A stretch of DNA of 64,000 nt, from positions 256,001-320,000 of the forward strand of contig JAVRCJ020000003.1 of the NCBI GenBank assembly GCA_034530875.2, in the 5' to 3' direction. Position numbers and translations under genes: made by a program. Below are positions 32,833-64,000 of this stretch, one piece after another (positions within the stretch are counted from its first letter, which is position 1; each line of letters starts with the position of its first letter). Below the pieces are notes generated by a model that was not told the origin of the DNA, searched no databases, and was given only the letters and a program-made list of their open reading frames with translations. The stretch is from Nostoc sp. DedSLP01. Its GTDB lineage: Bacteria; Cyanobacteriota; Cyanobacteriia; Cyanobacteriales; Nostocaceae.

Positions 32833-33585
32833 TTAAGCAGATTGCTTTGCAGTTTGCAATTTTTGGTTTTTACGTTTGCGTAGGAAGAATCCACCTACAG
32901 CTAGCATACCTAAAGTAACACTGGGTTCAGGCACAGTTTCAACACGAAATGTATGGTTGTCACTTTCAAAACCGCCACCTTCTGTCTGAGAAATTACAAT
33001 TTTATTAAAGGTATCATTTCCACCTTCTGAGAAAAACTCAAAGAAGCCATTCTTTTGACCGCCATGTTGCGAGGCTCCAACAGTAGCTGTATTATTTAAT
33101 ATGTCATAAGTTAATTCTTTGATTAAAGTAGTTCCGTTGAAGAACTTCAAAGTGTTACCTACACTCAGAGCACCTGCATCAAAACCGAAATAACTAAAAG
33201 TATTATTACCTTGAGCTTCAATGATGGTATCGCTATCAGAGAAAACTGCTAAATAATTGGTTTGATTGACTTCTGCATGAGCGCCAGAAGGTGCCCAAAC
33301 ATCCGAGTAAATACCAGTTTGACCAGAATAAGCTGTTGTTGAATAACTACCTTTAGAAAAAGAATATTTCACTAAGTCATTGCCTGGTACTTTATTATCA
33401 TTAAAATCAAAAGTTGTATAACCTGGGCTATTAACATTCGCAGAAAAAACACCTTCATTTACTTTTGTAGCATCTCGGTAAGATCCAGATTGATATGTAA
33501 ATCCTAAAGCATGTGCTGAACCCGCATAACTAATAGAAGCAATTATAGAGAGAACAGCAATGCTAGCAATTTTCTTAAAAGACAT
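32833..33585 (-). CDS. PEP-CTERM sorting-domain surface protein
   Basis: Signal peptide (AHA), FESDNH, VPEPS + TM segment + RKRK; start moved to ATG 33585. Confidence 0.92.
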   Translation of the reverse strand: MSFKKIASIAVLSIIASISYAGSAHALGFTYQSGSYRDATKVNEGVFSANVNSPGYTTFDFNDNKVPGNDLVKYSFSKGSYSTTAYSGQTGIYSDVWAPSGAHAEVNQTNYLAVFSDSDTIIEAQGNNTFSYFGFDAGALSVGNTLKFFNGTTLIKELTYDILNNTATVGASQHGGQKNGFFEFFSEGGNDTFNKIVISQTEGGGFESDNHTFRVETVPEPSVTLGMLAVGGFFLRKRKNQKLQTAKQSA

Positions 33586-33921
33586 GATTTTTTCCTGTTT
33601 TTCCTTTGTTCTAAATGAATTATGTAATTTGGTAACTACGAAATAACAGGGCAAAATCACTAGATTTATTTTTTCTACTTCAGTTAATATCTGAGTAGCA
33701 TTTTCAGGAATTTCAAACTTGAAAATGTTATTTATACTGGCAAAAAAATGAAGTTAGTATATTTATTTCAAAAGGATTATCAAATATCCGTAAGAGAACA
33801 TCTAATATATAAAGAAACTGTATTTTTTTATTTGCTATTTTGAAGATAAGATGAAGACTAGAGATAAATCGTATCTGTAGCAAAATGCAAATATGAATCG
33901 TTCACAACAGTAATATCTTCA

Positions 33922-34367: not shown

Positions 34368-36311
34368 TCATTCAATTTCTGTCTTGTTTTCGATGACCGT
34401 TGGTGTTGGAAGTGTTTCTAAAACCTGGCTTGGTGTACTAGTTATTACGGGATTATTCCCACGCACTAGCTGATTGATTTGAGCGATTAATTCTCCTAGT
34501 TTACCTTCATCAAGTAAGGTGTTTATTAGGGAAAGTCCACTAGTAGATAGTAGTAATTTGTTAATATCTTGGCTGCCGCTACTGCCATTTGCACCAGGGA
34601 ATGAGTAAATGCGAGTATCTCCTAGAACTCCCGGTTGCGGTGCTAAAGCAGTAACAATTTCTGGTAGCTTGTCGGCTAATTCTGGCCAAATAGTTGTAAT
34701 AATTTTGGCGGTGAGATTGGCATTACTAATGGAATTTTCAGCGGCGATTTTAGCGCGAATCCCTTCGGCTTCTGCTAAAATTTGGTCGCGGTTAGCTGCT
34801 GCTAAGGTGCGAATTGCTTCTGCTTCTAACTCTGCTGCTTCTTGGGCAATTTCTGCTTGACGGCGGCGGCGGAAAGCATCAATTTCTACAACGTTACGAT
34901 CGCCAATACTCTTTTCTTGCGCTTCTCGTTCCGCAGCAATAGTTGACAGGCGTTTGTTGCGTTCGGCTTTTTCCACTTCACTAGCTGTCTTCACTGATTC
35001 CTCGGCTTTGGCTTGTTCTGCTTGTGCGACAAAGCTTTCGCGTTTTTTATTGGCAATGGCGATCGCTACATCTTCTTGAGCTAGTTTTGCTAGTCGTTCT
35101 GACTCAACTATCTGGACTTGTGCTTGTAGTTTTCCTGATTCTACAGTTTGTTGGCGTGTAATCTCTGCTAGTTCTGATTCTTGTTTTTGCAGTGCTTGTA
35201 CTACCTTTAGCTGTTTATTGCGTTCTTCAAGTGCGATATCAGCTTCAATTTGACTTTGTTGCACCGATAAATTTTTGCGGATTTCTTCTTCTTCAACTGA
35301 TTTTTCCTGCAAGATTTTAGTTCGGCGGACTGCTGCTGCTTCCCTATCTTTGGATTCTTGGATTTCCCGTTCTCGCTGTGCTTTTAGGGCTTCTACTTGT
35401 AATTTTTGCTCTAGTTTCGCACTTTCTTGTTCTTGGGCAATTTGTAGCGATCGCTTTTGAGCATCCAGTTCTTTTTGCTCAATTGTCACCTGTGCTGCTA
35501 ACTCAACTTCTCGTTTTTGTTGAATCGAACGCTGAATAATTTCGGTTCGCAAGCGCACGCCTTGGGCATCAAAAAAGTTATCTGGATCGTAGGTAACACT
35601 TTCTAATATTTCGGAAATGGCAATATTATTTAAAGTTAAGCCGACTTTTTTCAAATCTGTCCCAACTAAGTTTAGTACTTCTTGAGCAAACCCCAATTTA
35701 TCAGAATCAATTTCTGCTAAATCCTTAGTTTTAGCTGCCGCCCTAATCGCGTCATCTGCTCTTTTCTCTAAAGCATTTTTGATATCTTCCGGAGTAATTT
35801 TAGTACCATTTTGGGATAATCTAGCCGCTGCTGTCAAAACATCTTCTTCCGAGGCATTAATACAAACATAAAAAGTCACGCGAATATCTGCTCGTAAGTA
35901 ATCTTTAGTCCGGACTGCAAGTTTACCAGTTCGTTCCACATCAATAGAAATTTCTCGCAGAGGTACGCGTGTCAGCTGATGGAATCCAGGTAAAACAATA
36001 CAACCACCATAAAGAATTACTGCTTTCTTTTTAATAAAAAGACCCCCAGTTCTCACGAAAGCTTCGTTGTTAGGTGTCACTACATAAACCCGTGTATAAG
36101 CAAACAAGCTGAGTAATAGTAATAAAACTAACCCAGCAATGATTGCTGGAAATACTAATCCACCATTGAGTTGAGCAAAATTAGGCATAATTTTTACTGG
36201 AAGTGTTTGGTCAATTAATGTTATTTGTTTTTGTTGTTGTAACTTAATCTGTGGAACTTCAGCTATTTTGACACTCGGTAAAGACTGGATAAAAGTCAAC
36301 CAAAAAAGCAT
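34368..36311 (-). CDS. SPFH/flotillin-family protein (YqiK-like)
   Basis: TM segment, AFVRTG, Band7 domain (RTKD.LRAD..VTFYV), NFFDAQG, long EA-rich coiled coil. Confidence 0.92.
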   Translation of the reverse strand: MLFWLTFIQSLPSVKIAEVPQIKLQQQKQITLIDQTLPVKIMPNFAQLNGGLVFPAIIAGLVLLLLLSLFAYTRVYVVTPNNEAFVRTGGLFIKKKAVILYGGCIVLPGFHQLTRVPLREISIDVERTGKLAVRTKDYLRADIRVTFYVCINASEEDVLTAAARLSQNGTKITPEDIKNALEKRADDAIRAAAKTKDLAEIDSDKLGFAQEVLNLVGTDLKKVGLTLNNIAISEILESVTYDPDNFFDAQGVRLRTEIIQRSIQQKREVELAAQVTIEQKELDAQKRSLQIAQEQESAKLEQKLQVEALKAQREREIQESKDREAAAVRRTKILQEKSVEEEEIRKNLSVQQSQIEADIALEERNKQLKVVQALQKQESELAEITRQQTVESGKLQAQVQIVESERLAKLAQEDVAIAIANKKRESFVAQAEQAKAEESVKTASEVEKAERNKRLSTIAAEREAQEKSIGDRNVVEIDAFRRRRQAEIAQEAAELEAEAIRTLAAANRDQILAEAEGIRAKIAAENSISNANLTAKIITTIWPELADKLPEIVTALAPQPGVLGDTRIYSFPGANGSSGSQDINKLLLSTSGLSLINTLLDEGKLGELIAQINQLVRGNNPVITSTPSQVLETLPTPTVIENKTEIE

Positions 36312-36323
36312 GTTATTTTCCTC

Positions 36324-37019
36324 TTAAGAATTTGAATCTCTTCGAGATGAATTATTTAACCAGCGTTCTTCGTCAGGGCTGTCTTTAGCAATAACTACAT
36401 AAATTTGTGCTTTGTGTTCGATAATTAAAACTCTTTCTGTGCGCTGCGGTGCAATAGTTGCCCAGTCTGCTAAAACAGCACTAACTGTCAAAAGATTCCG
36501 TTTTCCATCCAGCACATCTACTTGTCCAATCTTGCTTTGGTTTTCGATGGGAATATAAGCAGATGTCACAATTCCAACGCAACCGATTAAGCGATCGCTA
36601 CTTACATCCTCGCCAAACTCGGCAAATATTTTGCCAATTGGTCGCGCTATCAATCCTCCTAATATTAAGCTAATAATTAGCGAACCAAATAATATAATGC
36701 TTGCAATCAAACCATCAATATTATTATTGCCACCACCAAACCAAACATTTAACATCCAGCCGATAATGCCCCACAAACTCAAATCTGTAGCGAGTAACAA
36801 TATCAATGGAGCTTTGCCAATCCCAGCCCATCCCAGGAATTGCCCAAAACTCAATTCGTGATTGCTATCTGCGTCTACATCTGCATCTACGTCCACATCC
36901 ACGTCTGCATCAATATCGACATCTTCCCCTCCTCCACCAGAAACGATCGTAAAAAAGAACAGCAAGACTCCCATCCCTAGAAAAATCCAATAGGGCAAGT
37001 TGTTGAAGCTAAACAGCAT
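36324..37019 (-). CDS. YqiJ/DUF1449 NfeD-like OB-fold membrane partner of flotillin
   Basis: TM segments, D(A/V)D(V/I)D tract, GIGKAP; 12 bp upstream of flotillin. Confidence 0.82.
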   Translation of the reverse strand: MLFSFNNLPYWIFLGMGVLLFFFTIVSGGGGEDVDIDADVDVDVDADVDADSNHELSFGQFLGWAGIGKAPLILLLATDLSLWGIIGWMLNVWFGGGNNNIDGLIASIILFGSLIISLILGGLIARPIGKIFAEFGEDVSSDRLIGCVGIVTSAYIPIENQSKIGQVDVLDGKRNLLTVSAVLADWATIAPQRTERVLIIEHKAQIYVVIAKDSPDEERWLNNSSRRDSNS

Positions 37020-56347: not shown

Positions 56348-56605
56348 TTATGAGCCAAATTTCCCTTTAATTAAACGGTGAAACAAGCGGCAAGGCCAGA
56401 AGAAAGCTCCACAAATACTCACTGAAGCTATAACAGCGACAATTCGCCAATTCAAATTAGGCGAATTGTCAGGCTGTAAGGACTGAGCTTGTGTGCTTTT
56501 AATCAGTTCTGGCGCAGAATCAGAGAGCTGGCTGGCTGTACTCACCCCTTCAATCGCTGCTCCAATTAGATAAGCTACCAGGGCAATTATTAGCCAGTAG
56601 TTCAT
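56348..56605 (-). CDS. Small hypothetical membrane protein
   Basis: 85 aa with two hydrophobic segments. Confidence 0.6.
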   Translation of the reverse strand: MNYWLIIALVAYLIGAAIEGVSTASQLSDSAPELIKSTQAQSLQPDNSPNLNWRIVAVIASVSICGAFFWPCRLFHRLIKGKFGS

Positions 56606-56668
56606 TCTGTTACACTATTTGAACTGTAAACGTATGCTTGGCAGCGAACAATCATTTGGTTTGTTGTC

Positions 56669-56908
56669 CTAATGATTGCCACCTTGTCCTAACGATAATC
56701 GACCCTCAGCCGTATCGCGAATTAGAGGCAGTTTAGATTTTATATAACTATTGAGGCTACTATCTACCTGAGCATCAATTCCCTGCTTCGCTTTTAATTG
56801 CTGAAGGAGCAATTGTACTAAAGCGGCATCGTCAAAGTTGAGTAGGGTGTTGACCTGGGTAGATTCGATTACAGCCCAGAGCTGTTGCATCATTTTGGGA
56901 GCGATCAT
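56669..56908 (-). CDS. Small hypothetical protein
   Basis: 79 aa; QLW..IE..Q and KLPLIRD pattern resembles small conserved cyanobacterial proteins. Confidence 0.7.
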   Translation of the reverse strand: MIAPKMMQQLWAVIESTQVNTLLNFDDAALVQLLLQQLKAKQGIDAQVDSSLNSYIKSKLPLIRDTAEGRLSLGQGGNH

Positions 56909-57253: not shown

Positions 57254-57829
57254 TTATTGCGATTTCCTCACACAAGAGGGTTGCTCGCCAGAAGGAGGAT
57301 CAGGGTAAATTGCTAGAGTGTGATAGTCTGGAGCCTCGTTACCATATATCACTCGAAAAGTATAGAGTTTGTTCGTACCTTGAGCTTCGGTAACAACTGT
57401 TAAAAGTGTATTCTCAGTTTTAGGAAGGCCGGGAATCTTCAGTTTGGGGATTCGCCTGAGTTGAATTACATTTGCTGCTGAGTTTTTACAATCTCCAGTA
57501 CTAGTGTTCGGTTCGCTACCAAACTGCATACATACCGGGCCATCAAAATCTATAGTGACTTGCGATGGATCGTTTAACCAAACTTTTTTAATTACTTCTC
57601 CCGCAGGAATAAAACTTAAGTTTGTTCCTTGCTGATAGGAAATATCGATGGTGGGTATTACTCCACTTAAACCCTGTGCTTGACAAGAAAATAAGGAACG
57701 CAGAACAGCATTATTAGCTACAGCACGACCTACCAATAACAACATAGTAACCGAAAAAATTAAGGAAGCTATAGGTAGGAAATAAGAGTTATTTAGAGCA
57801 TTTCCTGGTAACTTAATACTATTTTTCAT
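57254..57829 (-). CDS. Exported protein, VirB9-like by position and motif
   Basis: Signal peptide; GTNLSFIP.GE.IKKVWLNDPS and LLTVVT..LYTFRV; downstream of the VirB10-like gene. Confidence 0.55.
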   Translation of the reverse strand: MKNSIKLPGNALNNSYFLPIASLIFSVTMLLLVGRAVANNAVLRSLFSCQAQGLSGVIPTIDISYQQGTNLSFIPAGEVIKKVWLNDPSQVTIDFDGPVCMQFGSEPNTSTGDCKNSAANVIQLRRIPKLKIPGLPKTENTLLTVVTEAQGTNKLYTFRVIYGNEAPDYHTLAIYPDPPSGEQPSCVRKSQ

Positions 57830-57960
57830 GGTTAAGAATGGGGATATTGGTAGATAGAACAGAGGGAGAAAAGGCTTAGAGACTCAAGGTAATAAAATAT
57901 CCCAATATCTATTGTCGGATAGGTGTCTCAACCCTCCTCTTAACTGGGCGGACTAAAAGC

Positions 57961-58152
57961 CATTGGTGTCAACTTAAGTTCAAACACTCAATTTACCGTG
58001 GTTTTAGATCCCTCAACCCCCTTAAAAAAGGGCAAAAGATTCTAGTTCCCCCTTTTTCAAGGGGGTTAGGGGGGATCGAAAATCTAGGTAGTACATCAAA
58101 AAATTTTGAAATGCTTATCAGACTTCGCTTTCATGTGAAGTTGACACTAATG
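57961..58152. mobile_element. 192-bp MITE with 15-bp TIRs and 9-bp target-site duplication
   Basis: CATTGGTGTCAACTT / AAGTTGACACTAATG (14/15); flanks ACTAAAAGC / ACTAATAGC. Confidence 0.85.
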
Positions 58153-58343
58153 ACTAATAGCCCACCCCACAAGTAATAGTAATTTATTTGTTGGGGTTCC
58201 GTTATTCCAAAGATATTGAAAATATACGGTAAAAAAACTATTTACAAAAAACTAATACTTAATCAAAGCCTGCAAATTCCTGTACGTAAAAAGTCAGGAT
58301 TGAGCCTCAGCTGAAAGTTGCAAATTGAGATAAACTCTATCTT

Positions 58344-59939
58344 CTAAAATTGCATTACTTGGTTGACATATATTTCAATATTTGTGCCTGCTGGGACGAA
58401 CCAAATATTAGTTTGTTGTGACATTTGGGCGATCGCCTGTTGGTTGCGTTGGGCAATTTGCGGTACTACAGAGTTCATACCACCTTCAACAATGCCTGCT
58501 GCAATATTTTCCCCACTGTTAGTGTTACTAACAACTGTGCTGCCACCATTGATTGTGACAACTTGACCGTCAGTGCGATTCATTAACTCTGCTGCTTTCC
58601 CAATACCTCCCAATACAAATAGTCCTAGATCCATTGATGCTATGGATGAGCTTTGATTGGGGAATTTATTGGCTATTAATGGTCTACCTTTAGCACCGCG
58701 AATAATAATTGCATTATCGGGTAAGTTTTGTTCTATCAGGTTGCCATCAACTTTAGAGATAAATTTGACTACCTTCATCTGCAAAAGACCTTGTTCTGAA
58801 AGAGAACTAATTTCAGTGAGAAATTCGGTATTTGCAGGTAGAGCTACCTCACCATTGGTAGATTTTAGTGGTTCTTTCAATCGCACCACAAATGTATTTT
58901 TATTTGCTGTTCCTTCCTCATTGCCTCCTCTAGTAGTTTCGCCAAATATTGCTGTTGCGAATACGGCTTTGGCACTAGTGCCGATCGCCACAGATTTTTC
59001 TCCCTGTGGTTGCCCTTGGGCGACTACAGCATTTCCTTGTTCTGGGGTTACCTGGGAATTGGGGTTTTCATTGGGATTGGGGTTTGGCGTCTGTTGAGGC
59101 GACTGCACTTCGTTTTGAGGTTGGGAAGCTGCTGCAACATTATTAGGTTGCTCGATCGCATTTACTTGGCCGTAGCTACCTAACTTTGCCAGTTTTGTCC
59201 ACTCATCAAATGGGTTTGGTGGGGGTGGCGGAGTGATGCTGACTACGGGTTGAGTGGTTGATTGGAGAACAGGTAGTTGGGGTCTTGGTGAAGCTTGAGG
59301 AGCAGGTACTCTGACAATGCGCTCAACTGTAACTGGTCGAGGGACGTAAACTGTTGGTGCTGGTGTTGGTATCACTTGCTGTCTCCTTATTCCAGAAGAT
59401 GATGGTTCTAGCTGTGAGACTGCTGTAGGCGTCGATCTTGCCATTCTCAGCTGTTCTTGGGCGGCCTTTACTGTCTGCGTTTGTTGCGTCAGGGCTAATT
59501 TCGTTTTCAGAATTTCGATTTCGCCTTTTAGCTGCTCGGGAGTCGATTGATTTGTTGGCTGCGGCTGCACTTGTTGGGTAACAATATTTCTGGGCTTTTG
59601 ATTGCTGCTACTCATCAATTGCGACAAAAATACACCAGCTACCAAAACTACTGCCAAAGTAGCAGCACCTACTAGACTTAATTTGGCAAAGGGGTTCGAT
59701 GAGAGGGGTTGCTCTGTCTTAACTTCCTCTGGTTCCAGAGATGGTTGTGAGATTTCAGAGTCTTCTGATATTTGCCGCAGGCTTTGCCCGCCGTGGGCAT
59801 CGCTAGAAAATTCTTCTTCAAAGCCAACCAACCGTGCTATCCGCGATTCCCAATCTAGAGATTCTACTGGGCGATGGTCGGTGTCTAGATTTAATAAATT
59901 TGGTGGATGGGTTTCTGTCGAAACTGAATATTTAGTCAT
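58344..59939 (-). CDS. TrbI/VirB10-like type IV secretion protein
   Basis: Single TM segment, coiled coil, Pro/Gln-rich linker, beta-rich C-domain ending WFVPAGTNIEIYVN. Confidence 0.78.
   Translation of the reverse strand: MTKYSVSTETHPPNLLNLDTDHRPVESLDWESRIARLVGFEEEFSSDAHGGQSLRQISEDSEISQPSLEPEEVKTEQPLSSNPFAKLSLVGAATLAVVLVAGVFLSQLMSSSNQKPRNIVTQQVQPQPTNQSTPEQLKGEIEILKTKLALTQQTQTVKAAQEQLRMARSTPTAVSQLEPSSSGIRRQQVIPTPAPTVYVPRPVTVERIVRVPAPQASPRPQLPVLQSTTQPVVSITPPPPPNPFDEWTKLAKLGSYGQVNAIEQPNNVAAASQPQNEVQSPQQTPNPNPNENPNSQVTPEQGNAVVAQGQPQGEKSVAIGTSAKAVFATAIFGETTRGGNEEGTANKNTFVVRLKEPLKSTNGEVALPANTEFLTEISSLSEQGLLQMKVVKFISKVDGNLIEQNLPDNAIIIRGAKGRPLIANKFPNQSSSIASMDLGLFVLGGIGKAAELMNRTDGQVVTINGGSTVVSNTNSGENIAAGIVEGGMNSVVPQIAQRNQQAIAQMSQQTNIWFVPAGTNIEIYVNQVMQF
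59778..59798 (-). mobile_element. 21-nt SDR-like insert in a HIP1-like site within the VirB10-like gene
   Basis: Minus strand GCGAT-[GCCCACGGCGGGCAAAGCCTG]-CGG; preserves the frame. Confidence 0.7.
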
Positions 59940-60640
59940 GGTAAAGCTTTATTTAGATTTCCAGAACAATTGTTATCTTGGATTTCACAGACATTATAAA
60001 TTTCTAGTCTGGCTTCACCAAGACGGTAAACAGCAAATTGCGAGGGAAGCGGTGCATTTGGGAGTGAAGTTGCTGGTTCATTTATTGCTCTAACTAAAAT
60101 TTGTTTATTAAATGCAATGGATTTTCCCAATTTATCATAACTACTAAAAGTTAATTGATTGGCAAGCATCTCTACTTTCCATCTGCCTTCGCCTATTTTT
60201 GTTGGTTGAGAAATTTTTTGAATTACTAATACATTTTCGGCTCCTCTATTCACATTTTCAAATTGGCGATCGGGATTTAAGTCAGTCAGTTGTGACTTGA
60301 GTTTTTCTTGAAATTCATCAGCTACTAATTGAGAGCTAATTTCCCAAACTGTTTTTGGCGGCTGTTGTGGTGACCAGTTCAGCATTAAACTCATAGTTTC
60401 ACCAACAAAGCGCCGAATAGTTTCTGGTTGTCGCTCTAAATTTGGTTGGGGGTCTACTGTAATCGCACGACCATCAATAAGTTGTACTAAACTTTGAGGC
60501 GTGAGTTGACGACCTAACTGTTGTAACATAGACCAGTGAAATATTAGTAACAGTAAGGTTAATACATTTAAACCAAACGTTGCTACTGCCAACAATGGTA
60601 AAGCGTTACTTTTTTTATTTTCTGATTTAAATATTTGCAT
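59936..60640 (-). CDS. Bitopic membrane protein, VirB8-like by topology; paralog of the upstream gene
   Basis: N-terminal TM; LVQLIDG, PETIRRFV, FNKQILVRA, RLEIY; ATGA overlap with the VirB10-like gene. Confidence 0.6.
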   Translation of the reverse strand: MQIFKSENKKSNALPLLAVATFGLNVLTLLLLIFHWSMLQQLGRQLTPQSLVQLIDGRAITVDPQPNLERQPETIRRFVGETMSLMLNWSPQQPPKTVWEISSQLVADEFQEKLKSQLTDLNPDRQFENVNRGAENVLVIQKISQPTKIGEGRWKVEMLANQLTFSSYDKLGKSIAFNKQILVRAINEPATSLPNAPLPSQFAVYRLGEARLEIYNVCEIQDNNCSGNLNKALP

Positions 60641-60867
60641 GAAGAATTTATTTTATATTTAATTGCACTATCTTGTCAGGAGTCAGAAGCCAGGATAAGA
60701 TTTGAGAAATGAATGTACATTATAGGTTTAAGAAACTTAATGTACGTCATTGAGGTCTAATAGCTAGGCAGGGTCTCTATTCTGATTCTTACTTTCAAGT
60801 ACTAAATTCTTAATTCTTCTGTATTCATCATAACTAAAATTTTTATCAATTCTCACTTCTTAAGTTT

Positions 60868-61692
60868 TTACCTAATAAAGTTATCAGTTCTTTGCTGAGT
60901 TTTGCATTCTCTTAATTGAGTTTCATTGAGATTATTGTAGTTATCTAACAAACATAATTCTCGGATTTCATAAATCTCGAGTCTATCAGACCGGACAATA
61001 TAAATAGCTTTTTGTAGGTCAGTGCCAGTCTCGATTTGGGAATTAGCGAAATAATCTGTTGCCCGTACAAGAAAGTCTTTGTTAAAAGGAGTTACGACTT
61101 GTCTGTTATCACCTCGATTCTTTTGAATTAAGTCGGCTACCATACCCACTCGCCACTGACCCGCTGCAATTTCTTTTGGGGGATAAATTCGTTTAATTAC
61201 TAAGCGTGATGTCATCCCTTGGTTGGGATTTTCACTAAAAACTTCTGGTGGCGTGAGTTCAGCAATTGTGCTTAAGAAACCTTTGCGAAAGTCTTCTGAT
61301 AAAGCAAAACTAGCTATCCAGCTAGTGGTACTAATTTTCTGGCTACCGCCTTGGGGTGTTTTAATGGGTATTCCCAAATCTGGTTTGGGGTTTGCGGCTT
61401 CTTCAATCCTTTGTGGGGGTAGGGTTCCCGACCAGTTAAACATTGCGGTCATCGTTTTGCTGATGAATTGGCGAATTGCTTCTGGTTCTCTTTTTAAATC
61501 ATCAATTTCCCCTACTGGTTTCCCATCTATTAATTGCACAAAGTTAGGAGGTTTTCTCAGACTCAATTGGCGAATGGTTAAGCCTTGAAATAAAAATAAA
61601 AGTAACACTAATATGTGCAAACCAAAAGTAGCGATCGCAAAAAGTGTTAAAACACTTGCCGTTCTTTGTTTTTTCTCTAACAAACGTACCAT
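60868..61692 (-). CDS. Bitopic membrane protein, VirB8-like by topology
   Basis: N-terminal TM; FVQLIDG, PEAIRQFI, FNKDFLVRA, RLEIY; GGAGGTG RBS. Confidence 0.6.
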   Translation of the reverse strand: MVRLLEKKQRTASVLTLFAIATFGLHILVLLLFLFQGLTIRQLSLRKPPNFVQLIDGKPVGEIDDLKREPEAIRQFISKTMTAMFNWSGTLPPQRIEEAANPKPDLGIPIKTPQGGSQKISTTSWIASFALSEDFRKGFLSTIAELTPPEVFSENPNQGMTSRLVIKRIYPPKEIAAGQWRVGMVADLIQKNRGDNRQVVTPFNKDFLVRATDYFANSQIETGTDLQKAIYIVRSDRLEIYEIRELCLLDNYNNLNETQLRECKTQQRTDNFIR

Positions 61693-61825
61693 TTAATCAC
61701 CTCCTGCACTCAAAAACTTCCTTTGTTATCGTAGGCAATAAATTTTGATTTTTATCTCATGATTCTTTCATAATTCTGAATTCTGGGTTCTTAATTCTGG
61801 ATTCTGAGTTCTGAATTATTTTTAC

Positions 61826-62875
61826 TTATATTCTCTCCCTCACTAAAGAAGCCGCATTATTGATAGCACTGAAGACTGCAAAACCACCAGCAGCAGCCAC
61901 AAATAAAGATAAAATCGGTGCTAAAACTCCTAGAAAAATCATGAACCACATTAAGTCTGGATCGACATTAGCATCTTGACCGGGGCCATTGACAATTACT
62001 GCCGCAGTCAAGACAGCGATAATATTAAATGAAATCTTGGCAATACCAATAGATAAAAATCCGGTTAGCCATGCAAAAATTGGTTTACCAGCTACAGGTA
62101 GTAAAGAGGCACCAAGAGCAATTGGCCCTAAAGCTGCTATCAGTAACATCGTAGCTTCTATTAAATTTTGGAACGCATATTGTAAGGAAACTAAAAAGTT
62201 TTTGATGCTTGTTTGTACTGTAGAACCTAATAACGAATTAAATGAGGCTTCCGATACAACACCTGTACCATATCTAACGTTGTCTACCTTAGTTTGAAGC
62301 CTAGCTATCCAGCTTCTATTTCCGTATGTATCTCGATATTTCTGCCAGAGAATATTTACTTTTTCGGTGGCTTTAGCAAAGCATTGAGTTTGTTGTTCGC
62401 CAGTGAGTGACTGACAAGGACGCAAGAAAGAACCTGCTACTTCTTCCGCAACACTCATATTGAGTGCTTGCTGGTAAACTTTCTCTGCATCTGCTGTCAC
62501 CAATACTTGCTGATTTGCACCGTCTATAAAATTCCGCACTCCCAGTGTCAGATTAGAAAGGATACTGCCATTGCCGGAATTATTTAAGAGTATCACTACT
62601 ACAAAAGGCCAAATTAATCCTGATATGGGACGGGTGTATTCGTAAGATAATAAGTCTCGCAGGAATTGTACCATAAAAAACAACAACGTTCCTACAGCAA
62701 AAAAGATACCTACATTTGTCAGCGCTCCATACAAGTTATCGTTAGCATTAGGTTGTAGTAAATTGAGCCATTGTTTGTCCCAACCTTCAGCAATACTTTG
62801 GGAAGTTGCGACACCATTATCGAGAATTTCATCAATTCCAGCTTGGGCAAAAAATAGTTGAATAGCCAGTTGCAT
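61826..62875 (-). CDS. Polytopic membrane protein, VirB6/TrbL-like
   Basis: Several TM segments with a central soluble loop; ALGPIALGASLLP..FAWLTGF. Confidence 0.65.
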   Translation of the reverse strand: MQLAIQLFFAQAGIDEILDNGVATSQSIAEGWDKQWLNLLQPNANDNLYGALTNVGIFFAVGTLLFFMVQFLRDLLSYEYTRPISGLIWPFVVVILLNNSGNGSILSNLTLGVRNFIDGANQQVLVTADAEKVYQQALNMSVAEEVAGSFLRPCQSLTGEQQTQCFAKATEKVNILWQKYRDTYGNRSWIARLQTKVDNVRYGTGVVSEASFNSLLGSTVQTSIKNFLVSLQYAFQNLIEATMLLIAALGPIALGASLLPVAGKPIFAWLTGFLSIGIAKISFNIIAVLTAAVIVNGPGQDANVDPDLMWFMIFLGVLAPILSLFVAAAGGFAVFSAINNAASLVRERI

Positions 62876-63039
62876 TATTTTGGTTTGATGGACTCTATTT
62901 TGAGGATTGCTATATAAAACAGCACGCTAAATTTTTAATTTGATGGTGCTTCGTGGCAGATGAAAACTAGGTATTAATACCTCGCTCGTGCATTGTTTGT
63001 AGAAATATTAATTCTGTATTCTTGTTGAATCATCAAATC

Positions 63040-63846
63040 CTATTTAACAATTGTTCTGCCAAACAAATCCATTTGAGAAGTTGCTCGTAAAAGTCGTGCT
63101 GCTTCGGTGGATGTTTCAACTCTGCGAGCGCGATTTGCTTCTTCCGTCTGTTGAGCTATATTTGCTAGATTTAAATTTGAGTATTGCAAATACTGATTAG
63201 TTTGTATTGTCTGAGCAAATGTTTCACCAACAATTCTTGATTGTTCTTGTTGAATTTTGATGCTTTGTGATTGATTGGCATTGAGCAATTGTGCTAGGAT
63301 TGCTGTAGCTGGATCGAGTTTAGTAACATCGAAAGAAGGAATCGGAATTTTACTTAATAAATCTTGGCTTTGTTTTTCGGCTGCTTCAGCAAATCCAGCA
63401 ATATCTTTCAGACTTCTTTCTGTATTTATTAACTTCGCCCTTGACCGAGCTTGTCCATTTTCACCGAGAACACCTTCAGCTGCTCCACGAGTAATTAAAC
63501 GATTGAGTTCATTACTCACTAAATTTCCCCGCACAGCGGCATTATTTTCAAAGCGATCCGATCTAGAGTAGAGAATTAAGTCATCGCGAACTTTTTTACC
63601 TGCACCAACAGGGTTGGGTAAATTCAATTCTCCTTTTGCACCACTCAGAGCATTTCGGCTTTGGTAGTCTACAGTCTTTAAGTTGTCGTTGAGATTATAT
63701 TGGAAGTAGTCTTGCAAATCTTTAGAATATAATTGAAAATCAGTCCAAACCTGACCCAATCCTGATTTGTTAGTGCTCAGTTGGGCTGCTACAGGGAGAA
63801 TTCCCAGAGATACTAAAGTCAAAGTGAAAATGGTAGTTTTTCGCAT
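63040..63846 (-). CDS. Exported helical protein, VirB5/TrbJ-like by architecture
   Basis: Signal peptide (MRKTT..AAQ), Gln-rich helical C-terminus (NLNLANIAQQ); start moved to ATG 63846. Confidence 0.55.
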   Translation of the reverse strand: MRKTTIFTLTLVSLGILPVAAQLSTNKSGLGQVWTDFQLYSKDLQDYFQYNLNDNLKTVDYQSRNALSGAKGELNLPNPVGAGKKVRDDLILYSRSDRFENNAAVRGNLVSNELNRLITRGAAEGVLGENGQARSRAKLINTERSLKDIAGFAEAAEKQSQDLLSKIPIPSFDVTKLDPATAILAQLLNANQSQSIKIQQEQSRIVGETFAQTIQTNQYLQYSNLNLANIAQQTEEANRARRVETSTEAARLLRATSQMDLFGRTIVK

Positions 63847-63946
63847 ACATCTGTACCTCAAAAAGGTAGACGGAGTTATCTAGTAAGTAATTTTCCAGAA
63901 ATAATTTATTAGTGTTTGTGGGGTAAAATTGTTTGCTTTTGGTTTT

Positions 63947-63972
63947 GGGTGGGCGAGACGCCCACCCCACAA
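63947..63972. repeat. REP-like palindrome
   Basis: GGGTGGGCGAGACGCCCACCCCACAA; matches 15837-15862. Confidence 0.7.
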
Positions 63973-64000
63973 TCATTTTTTAAAGATTTTTGGATTTGTT

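Follow-up and report, generated by a model that had tools for sequence, protein, structure and literature searches.

A run of type IV secretion genes at the end of a 64,000-nucleotide stretch of Nostoc sp. DedSLP01 (contig JAVRCJ020000003.1, positions 256,001 to 320,000, or G000:C3:256001-320000 in our numbering; hereafter the window) raises the question of what a conjugation-type machine does in a cyanobacterial chromosome. An initial annotation, made from the letters alone, had proposed a divergent type IV secretion system (T4SS) of the cyanobacterial mating-pair formation class MPF_C, long resident, under selection and perhaps reused for protein or DNA export or for cell-cell interaction. 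We compared the locus with its relatives, starting from the 8.57-Mb genome that carries it (113 contigs, assembly 99.8% complete). Judging from sequence comparison, the operon is a domesticated, probably Pho-regulated variant of this machine.

Identity of the operon and its missing mobility parts

The six ORFs of the window are intact and lie on the minus strand, with spacers of 164, 133, 227, -4 and 514 bp in transcription order, in agreement with the six co-oriented ORFs, 130-510 bp spacers and single overlap first described. It had been suggested that VirB4, a coupling protein and a relaxase might lie past base 64000. Co-oriented genes for proteins of 935, 123 and 206 aa (VirB4, a VirB3-like protein and a candidate pilin) do follow there, while a coupling protein and a relaxase do not, and the operon comprises nine co-oriented genes over 10.5 kb, six in the window and three beyond it. 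Read in the direction of transcription, their nine products match alr7204, 05, 06, 07, 08, 09, 09, 10 and 11 of pCC7120alpha, with 38, 38, 54, 22, 32, 29, 27, 25 and 43% identity. According to the accessible part of Guglielmini 2014 (PMC4027160), pCC7120alpha is the model plasmid of the MPF_C class, to which we assigned the operon by BLAST against this plasmid, not by CONJscan profiles. Seven of the eight non-VirB4 genes of alr7204-alr7212 are present in order beside VirB4, one of them doubled, and alr7212 was not found. This collinearity bears out the MPF_C proposal.

VirB4 is 54% identical to alr7206 over 910 aa and keeps the Walker motifs of its conjugative relatives. VirB10 matches PF03743 (E 1.7e-7, below the curated cut-off), and its outer-membrane helix pair is kept in all alignment rows printed, even where VirB9 has been lost. 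The two VirB8-like copies are paralogues (32% identity); copy b reaches an Atlas feature score of 0.94 to a cluster with 87% PF04335 VirB8, sharing 201 of 256 features. The VirB9-like protein is without the ~60-aa tail present in conjugative relatives, and its model matches the VirB9 N-terminal domain (Foldseek, 7o3t, R388 TrwF, E 1.8e-5; VIA, Z 11.3 and rmsd 2.6 with 103 residues aligned to 6gyb, a second match at Z 10.1 and the next row at 6.0). VirB10 had been the only call regarded as fairly firm; VirB8, VirB9 and VirB10 now have independent support from a feature score, a fold and a profile. The PF03743 and VirB9-fold matches also answer the concern that these genes might have no T4SS profile or structure match at all.

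In the 206-aa protein, a conserved AxA/QFF motif is followed by two hydrophobic helices, and both the processing motif and the mature region are conserved. We take this to be VirB2 pilin anatomy and infer from it a VirB2-like pilin; Pfam and PDB sequence searches gave no match for this protein. The putative VirB6 is named from its homology to alr7208 and its gene position. Several UniRef records call it 'NAD/NADP transhydrogenase beta subunit', which looks like propagated misannotation. The VirB5 call for the alr7207 homologue is still weak. Its all-helical model (pLDDT 75) matches only generic helical bundles; VirB5 was not among the structure matches, which does not exclude VirB5 identity. 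Predicted pairing of this protein with the VirB6-like protein scored 0.48 against 0.00 for the best control, graded weak by the tool, with at least 46% of contacts agreeing between runs and a partner pLDDT of at least 61. Among solved pairs 116/157 attain this mark, and among mismatched pairs 2/215; of those attaining it, only 18 solved but both mismatched pairs lie at 0.60 or less. The pass may reflect likeness to solved VirB5-VirB6 complexes. Of the six window proteins, five had no usable Pfam or NCBIfam match, and nothing came from searching PDB sequences with VirB4 or with alignments of VirB9, the pilin and VirB6.

The genome carries a single VirB4. In searches from which a small plasmid could be missing, given an assembly in 113 contigs, alr7212 and the coupling protein alr7213 found no match, and neither did the coupling-protein profiles PF02534 and PF10412, which do detect the plasmid coupling protein. 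For relaxases the search covered PF01076 and MobV alone: the former had no match, and the sole match to the latter was a 41-aa scrap on a different contig. VirB11 was not found; the secretion-ATPase family gave three strong matches, none on this contig, which we read as PilB and PilT types. The integrase search, made for the tyrosine type and not for serine recombinases, gave seven matches in the genome, none on this contig, and no tRNA lies closer to the cluster than 86 kb. The original impression that no integrase, relaxase, tRNA or att-like boundary is nearby was therefore borne out by the integrase, tRNA and relaxase searches.

The same form of the system was examined at 43 loci across genera, hereafter the domesticated loci. 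VirB8 is doubled in all of them and gene order is kept in 42; no alr7212, coupling protein or relaxase occurs within the 20 kb read around them, and the 80 named loci have no coupling protein either. By contrast, among the 17 loci whose VirB4 falls in the 54-64% identity tiers, a coupling protein is present in 15 and a doubled VirB8 in none. Since the operon has no coupling protein, DNA export is disfavoured among the reuses first proposed.

A probable link to phosphate

The cyanobacterial Pho box has been described as three 8-bp repeats with 3-bp linkers (PMC1906773 and PMC9846622, accessible parts). Three TTAA cores with an 11-bp period stand about 175 nt upstream of the pilin gene in 20 of the 43 domesticated loci (14 perfect), compared with 1/16 conjugative-type loci and 1.2/43 in shuffles; triples with periods of 9, 10, 12 or 13 occur in only 1-4 of the 43. 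The element also precedes all five full-length PhoX/PhoD genes of the present genome (two PhoX, three PhoD) and two pstS-like genes. A Pho matrix built from these seven sites, and partly circular as they were picked by the same core pattern, placed the cluster site among the best 1.1% of 1521 upstream regions (sense strand only). Scores above the 95th percentile occurred in 17/43 domesticated versus 1/16 conjugative-type loci, and in 60 of the 79 named loci, mostly of Nostoc, where the sites lie between about -162 and -183. The nearest gene upstream of the operon encodes PhoX (10, in two size classes), PhoA (1) or PstS (1) in 12/43 domesticated versus 0/14 conjugative-type loci, counts that include related, non-independent genomes. 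Most element-bearing loci have no adjacent phoX, which indicates that the element travels with the operon. Other motifs upstream of the pilin gene gave little: NtcA sites were marginally enriched (11/42; shuffle maximum 9), LexA, DIF and SigJ motifs were not enriched, and sigma-70 and terminator scans stayed at chance level. Further Pho-box-like sites of this genome (G000:C1:280868, C5:51655, C26:55552, C22:127487, C9:79835 and C65:9240) lie before genes that, named by sequence, are phosphoketolase-like, nucleotidyltransferase, MgtC-like, purF-like and for a secreted protein; these are candidate members of the Pho regulon.

Published data from Nodularia spumigena CCY9414 are consistent with this promoter. 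The accessible part of the PMC9846622 supplement lists NSP5570 as TrbI/VirB10, with nine genes between murF and a phosphotransferase; we mapped these nine (NSP5640-NSP5550) to the operon by collinearity in this one strain. The main text of that paper does not name the operon's NSP tags. Under phosphate depletion, the log2 changes at days 7/14 were 2.35/2.27 for the pilin, 2.00/1.96 for VirB3, 1.70/2.04 for VirB4, 1.88/1.90 for the VirB5 position, 1.92/1.48 for VirB6, 0.95/1.30 and 1.52/1.54 for VirB8a and VirB8b, 0.95/1.35 for VirB10 and 0.82/1.45 for VirB9. At day 7 six of the nine changes were significant, in a set of only 112 up-regulated genes, and at day 14 all nine were (2.5-4.8-fold). 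Induction was strongest at the 5' end of the operon, and the flanking genes (0.07/0.31 and 0.71/0.00) did not change significantly.

By collinearity, the operon corresponds to all0471-all0463 in Anabaena PCC 7120 and to Npun_F4255-F4263 in N. punctiforme; the accessible part of the Larsson 2011 supplement pairs Npun_F4255 with all0471, F4256 with all0470 and F4262 with all0464 (TrbI). Annotations of the model-strain genes read do not go beyond hypothetical or unknown, except for the TrbI label on VirB10. In the data available for six of the nine genes in each strain, expression was low in PCC 7120 (about 1 RPKM or less at time zero; PMC3141674), and all were expressed in N. punctiforme (PMC6495340). 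A hormogonium or heterocyst role, proposed at the outset, is not favoured by the published data, in which phosphate limitation gives the clearest signal. We rejected the hormogonium role on the N. punctiforme record, as far as accessible: a brief rise is followed by a fall in the wild type after 1 h (the genes stay up in sigJ and sigC mutants), and one gene only carries a significance flag. all0463 is an unknown heterocyst-core gene in PMC4365693, and a FurC box is predicted before all0465 (PMC10406281). The 'TrbI-like' heterocyst-signature groups of Larsson 2011 (all3984, alr7536) and the 'TrbI' protein all3984 of PMC8147232, as far as accessible, are other genes and not the operon's VirB10. 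RNA-run contigs from four studies span the whole L116 cluster and were given little weight, as contigs show neither level nor strand. The supplement of a lichen transcriptome had no matches.

Taken together, the Pho-box-like promoter, the phosphatase and pstS neighbours and the one depletion dataset make it likely that the operon serves phosphate stress. Besides the circularity of the matrix and the relatedness of the neighbour counts, several points weigh against this and against the export role discussed below. The element is missing in 23/43 domesticated loci, it has 174 genome-wide matches at one mismatch, and the triple repeat of this genome fits the strict Pho consensus loosely (6 mismatches in 24). 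The induction comes from one strain, in Nodularia orthologues rather than this genome, and the phosphatases there rose far more (log2 about 4-8) than the operon (~2-5-fold); Santoro et al. reported no conserved P-box in Nodularia, in the part of PMC9846622 accessible to us. Other conditions also raise expression: all0469 was up about 6-fold after nitrogen step-down in PCC 7120 (PMC3141674, accessible part), and the N. punctiforme genes were up 1.5-3.6-fold 1 h after hormogonium induction or medium shift (PMC6495340, likewise). At least 54 of 300 family genomes have no domesticated system. Loss of VirB9 from 12/44 loci fits poorly with a conserved outer-membrane export route, and all five VirB9-less genomes tested hold distant (36-44%) copies on other contigs or none. 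Finally, the preference for export over import or adhesion comes only from gene neighbourhood and analogy.

Conservation, inheritance and make-up of the cluster

VirB4 homologues fall into tiers by identity. The 73-97% form was present in 23/24 and 61/62 genomes of the genus, and the domesticated form in at least 222 of 300 family genomes (24 more unresolved); outside the family it was found in 1/354 (G496). The high-identity form makes up one clade of the VirB4 tree (FastTree support 0.89, long-branch root). In a concatenated cluster tree, 12 of 23 strong rpoB splits recur over 40 shared genomes (random expectation 0.15, maximum 2), with ten conflicts with strong cluster splits and a patristic correlation of 0.48. 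On these figures, inheritance is mostly vertical at shallow and intermediate depths and discordant deeper down. Second domesticated-type copies (73-76%) in 9/80 genomes (including L151, L174 and L175) and two copies outside the family indicate some duplication or transfer. The 3' flank holds lnt in 10/44 and gyrA in 9/44 loci from distant genera (identified from their sequences), a neighbourhood that points to an old shared insertion site. The gene map, near which the cluster was first said to end, is close by and not adjacent: two small ORFs intervene. It lies near the cluster in 9/80 named loci and in 0/43 loci from across the family; synteny with map across Nostocales, suggested as a check, was therefore rejected as proof of residence, the linkage being local to one Nostoc lineage.

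Over 55-61 loci of the genus, the median ratio of nonsynonymous to synonymous substitution rates (dN/dS) was lowest for VirB3 (0.065), VirB4 (0.066) and VirB6 (0.12), followed by the VirB8s and pilin (0.18-0.21), VirB9 (0.25), the VirB5 position (0.28) and VirB10 (0.35). Synonymous divergence of the cluster (dS 0.42-0.73) resembles that of the flanking pxcA (0.62) and mltA (0.64), and the ORFs are intact in 44/44 loci. With 3 sites in 10.5 kb compared with 8.9 per 10 kb, HIP1 density is at the low end for the contig and argues against full amelioration. This range of dN/dS, together with family-wide spread, gene order and the absence of mobility genes, agrees with the proposal of a long-resident system under selection, and neither the nearby relaxase and integrase nor the patchy spread that would mark an ordinary integrative and conjugative element (ICE) was found. 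We consider it very probable that the operon is a domesticated MPF_C T4SS and not an ICE.

Features of the operon and its spacers are collected in table 1. The initial annotation had noted host repeats in the spacers, and copy counts above shuffles support this for two of them: the left 24-mer of the miniature inverted-repeat transposable element (MITE)-like element has 63 genome copies (up to 3 mismatches) versus 0 in three shuffles, and the repetitive extragenic palindromic (REP)-like repeat likewise exceeds its shuffles; the heptamer repeats of short tandemly repeated repetitive (STRR) type were located. The insert in the intact VirB10 gene, first described as like a small dispersed repeat, proved to be a 21-nt in-frame insertion. 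It is missing in 16 of 17 aligned relatives, the remaining one having a different insert at the same place, and resembles a dispersed repeat family with 6 mismatches in 31. Beyond the pilin gene lie a divergent pstS-like gene, a helix-turn-helix gene, mltA and pxcA.

Table 1. Positions of the operon genes, repeats and adjacent elements. Plain numbers count from the first base of the window.
Feature	Position	Strand	Remarks
VirB2-like pilin precursor, alr7204 homologue	L001:11143-11763	same strand as operon	38%; identity inferred from anatomy
VirB3-like, alr7205 homologue	L001:10751-11122	same strand as operon	38%
VirB4 ATPase, alr7206 homologue	L001:8050-10857	same strand as operon	54%; likely 915 aa; Walker A and B intact
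VirB4-VirB5 spacer, to rest of operon	63862-64000	-	
VirB5-position protein, alr7207 homologue	63040-63861	-	22%, E 4e-8; N-terminal hydrophobic segment, all-helical model
VirB6-like membrane protein, alr7208 homologue	61826-62875	-	32%; four hydrophobic segments; dN/dS 0.12
VirB8-like copy a, alr7209 homologue	60868-61692	-	29%; paralogue of copy b
VirB8-like copy b, alr7209 homologue	59936-60640	-	27%; VirB8 feature-score match
VirB10/TrbI, alr7210 homologue	58344-59939	-	25%; PF03743; C-terminal outer-membrane helix pair kept
VirB9-like, alr7211 homologue, N-terminal (I-layer) domain only	57254-57829	-	43%; 191 aa; fold match
Pho-box-like triple repeat	G000:C3:323910-323939		150-175 nt before pilin start
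Divergent pstS-like gene	L001:13138-14421	+	upstream of pilin gene
MITE-like element, internal hairpin, VirB10-VirB9 spacer	57946-58167		inverted ends 57946-57984 and 58129-58167
Heptamer tandem repeats (STRR type), VirB6-VirB8a spacer	61767-61828		
REP-like dispersed repeat, VirB4-VirB5 spacer	63944-63970		9 genome copies versus 0 in shuffles
21-nt in-frame insertion, N-terminal region of VirB10 gene	about 59778-59798	-	related to dispersed host repeat

Several related copies stand apart. VirB4 is 52-60% identical in the best 40 plasmid records, apart from a 75% copy in Gloeothece verrucosa PCC 7822 (L035, 880-kb linear replicon NC_014533); its locus has a doubled VirB8, is rearranged, and has no VirB9 match and no coupling protein nearby, a possible transfer or sister lineage. 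The copy in G496 (L170, G496:C238, another family) is 81% identical and rearranged, with an inverted VirB5-VirB10 block, reflecting transfer or a binning error. In L151 the second copy adjoins a phosphatase of PhoA type, and its Pho-like triple is perfect. In the present genome, a lone intact VirB10 paralogue on contig C18 (G000:C18; L003:9494-11086, minus strand), 46% identical to the cluster copy, forms a long branch inside the domesticated clade, with ankyrin, AraC and SDR neighbours and no other T4SS gene. Loci L156-L169 are ICE-like elements of the MPF_C class. One chromosome often has several of them, and DnaB, ParA/ParB or transposase genes lie beside them; in L169 the homologue of alr7212 has an M23 peptidase domain, suggesting a VirB1-like role. 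At window positions 56348-56908, two short, conserved ORFs of 79 and 85 aa come after VirB9, in its orientation, in almost every locus of the genus (dN/dS 0.11 and 0.31) and were not seen at the loci of other genera. Elsewhere, the window encodes a 275-aa protein with a signal peptide and a C-terminal VPEP motif, of PEP-CTERM type (32833-33660), and a flotillin-like protein (647 aa) followed by an NfeD-like membrane protein, both named by sequence (34368-37019). At L002:15074-17045, a DNA methyltransferase-like gene is convergent with and overlaps a 305-aa ORF, a possible restriction-modification pair.

Possible functions and known systems

Systems without a coupling protein are known to export proteins from the periplasm (Ptl), to import DNA (ComB) or to act through the pilus (Trw). 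We rank export of phosphate-scavenging proteins first because of the Pho-type control and the phosphatase neighbours. VirB4, VirB3, VirB6 and VirB8 would assemble a pilin-based conduit under a VirB10 outer-membrane pore. Without a coupling protein, cytoplasmic cargo would not be recruited by the usual route; the cargo would be proteins already brought to the periplasm by Tat or Sec (PhoX, PhoD, PhoA, nucleases or PstS), moved to the cell surface or sheath much as Bordetella Ptl moves its toxin. To this whole chain, in which a plasmid-derived machine without DNA-delivery parts exports periplasmic phosphate-scavenging proteins under Pho control, cargo included, we give a probability of roughly 0.4. 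The broader account, that an ancestor of the heterocyst-formers captured a conjugation machine and wired it into the Pho regulon as a nutrient-acquisition T4SS exporting phosphatases or importing DNA, strikes us as an even bet.

The promoter and Nodularia evidence would suit import equally well. The operon might take extracellular DNA or phosphorus-rich polymers into the periplasm, where nucleases and PhoX/PhoD would free phosphate, and might feed transformation; DNA import by a T4SS is established for H. pylori ComB (PMC4027160, accessible part). We consider this rather unlikely, though a close rival to export: PilB/PilT-type ATPases are encoded in the genome, cyanobacteria usually take up DNA by type IV pili, and no competence or nuclease gene was seen among the conserved neighbours. 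A Trw-like adhesive pilus, produced when phosphate is limiting and fastening filaments to surfaces, to mineral or organic particles or to partners, would accord with the strongest constraint falling on the inner-membrane pilus-assembly parts VirB3, VirB4 and VirB6, with the conserved pilin processing motif and mature region, and with the three rows of Larsson 2011 in which no orthologue is listed for N. azollae, Cylindrospermopsis and Raphidiopsis. Such a pilus is known from genes alone, however, with a weak call for the tip adhesin (VirB5); small genomes (3.9-4.5 Mb; G059, G073, G117 and G128) keep the system, and the planktonic bloom-former Nodularia spumigena both keeps and induces it, so that we hold adhesion to be rather unlikely, though it too is a close rival.

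It is improbable that the phosphate signals are incidental to another host role, such as cell-to-cell transfer across septa or general stress. The weak constraint on the outer-membrane parts and the dispensability of VirB9 in some lineages would be expected if no outer membrane were crossed, and the nitrogen step-down and early hormogonium responses could be read this way, but phosphate is indicated by three separate lines, the outer-membrane helices of VirB10 persist where VirB9 is lost, expression drops in mature wild-type hormogonia and some genera of the family have no system. A chromosomal helper for conjugation, which would rely on resident plasmids or ICEs for its coupling protein and relaxase, appears more doubtful still. 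The pilus-making genes are intact and a coupling protein occurs somewhere in 183/301 family genomes, but in only 27 of 62 genomes of the genus; the other 35 have none found, though 61/62 hold the system under strong selection. None was found in this genome or in ten single-contig assemblies with the domesticated form, which may omit plasmids (G058, G064, G070, G079, G112, G128, G186, G226, G242 and G248), and conjugative elements bring their own MPF genes. An ordinary or decaying ICE is hardly credible: low HIP1 density and some lateral spread (second copies, G496, the Gloeothece replicon) are outweighed by the lack of integrase, tRNA, relaxase and coupling protein nearby, the intact ORFs, the flank-like dS and the lnt-gyrA neighbourhood common to distant genera.

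The probable phosphate link of the domesticated operon is new here. A literature search, which did not extend to subscription journals, most supplements or the Su 2007 predicted-Pho-regulon supplements, found no paper on this operon or its phosphate link; the accessible parts of Guglielmini 2011 (PMC3158045) and PMC8600333 contain, respectively, one general remark on relaxase-less T4SSs in cyanobacteria and a treatment of plasmids. If nutrient acquisition under Pho control, by export of phosphatases or import of DNA, is true, it would be a T4SS role for which we found no published precedent, maintained in most members of a bacterial family, and could explain how phosphatases or phosphorus-rich polymers move across the outer membrane. 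Growth and blooms of the cyanobacteria that carry it are often phosphate-limited. To our knowledge, exapted T4SSs come mainly from pathogens and symbionts; here one is found in free-living nitrogen-fixing cyanobacteria, including tractable models.

The closest relatives by sequence are the ICE-like MPF_C elements of Nostocaceae (L156-L169 and L171; VirB4 59-64%). They are often chromosomal too, but have a single VirB8, a full-length VirB9, alr7212 and a coupling protein, occur patchily with several per genome, and carry the Pho-like element in only 1/16 cases. The pCC7120alpha system (alr7204-alr7213) shares the order of alr7204-alr7211 at 22-54% identity, the VirB4 motifs and the lack of VirB11. 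The operon differs in being chromosomal, with doubled VirB8, shortened or lost VirB9 and a Pho-box-like promoter, and in having no alr7212, coupling protein alr7213 or relaxase. Outside the class, H. pylori ComB was shown to import DNA, as named in the accessible part of PMC4027160.

ComB is of a different class and is host-domesticated, with a reduced gene set similar to the operon's and no coupling protein; we know of no phosphate link for it. Bordetella Ptl is likewise a conjugation-derived T4SS without a coupling protein that takes its cargo from the periplasm, but it is of the MPF_T class with VirB11, has a known toxin cargo and is confined to a narrow range of pathogens. Bartonella Trw also has no coupling protein and acts through its pilus, and the Rickettsiales rvh system is vertical across an order with duplicated VirB8, like the operon, although it keeps VirD4; both Trw and rvh serve host-cell interaction, unlike the operon. 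A functional analogue of the proposed export role is an unrelated machine, the Hxc type II secretion system of Pseudomonas aeruginosa, which is Pho-regulated and encoded beside the phosphatase that it exports.

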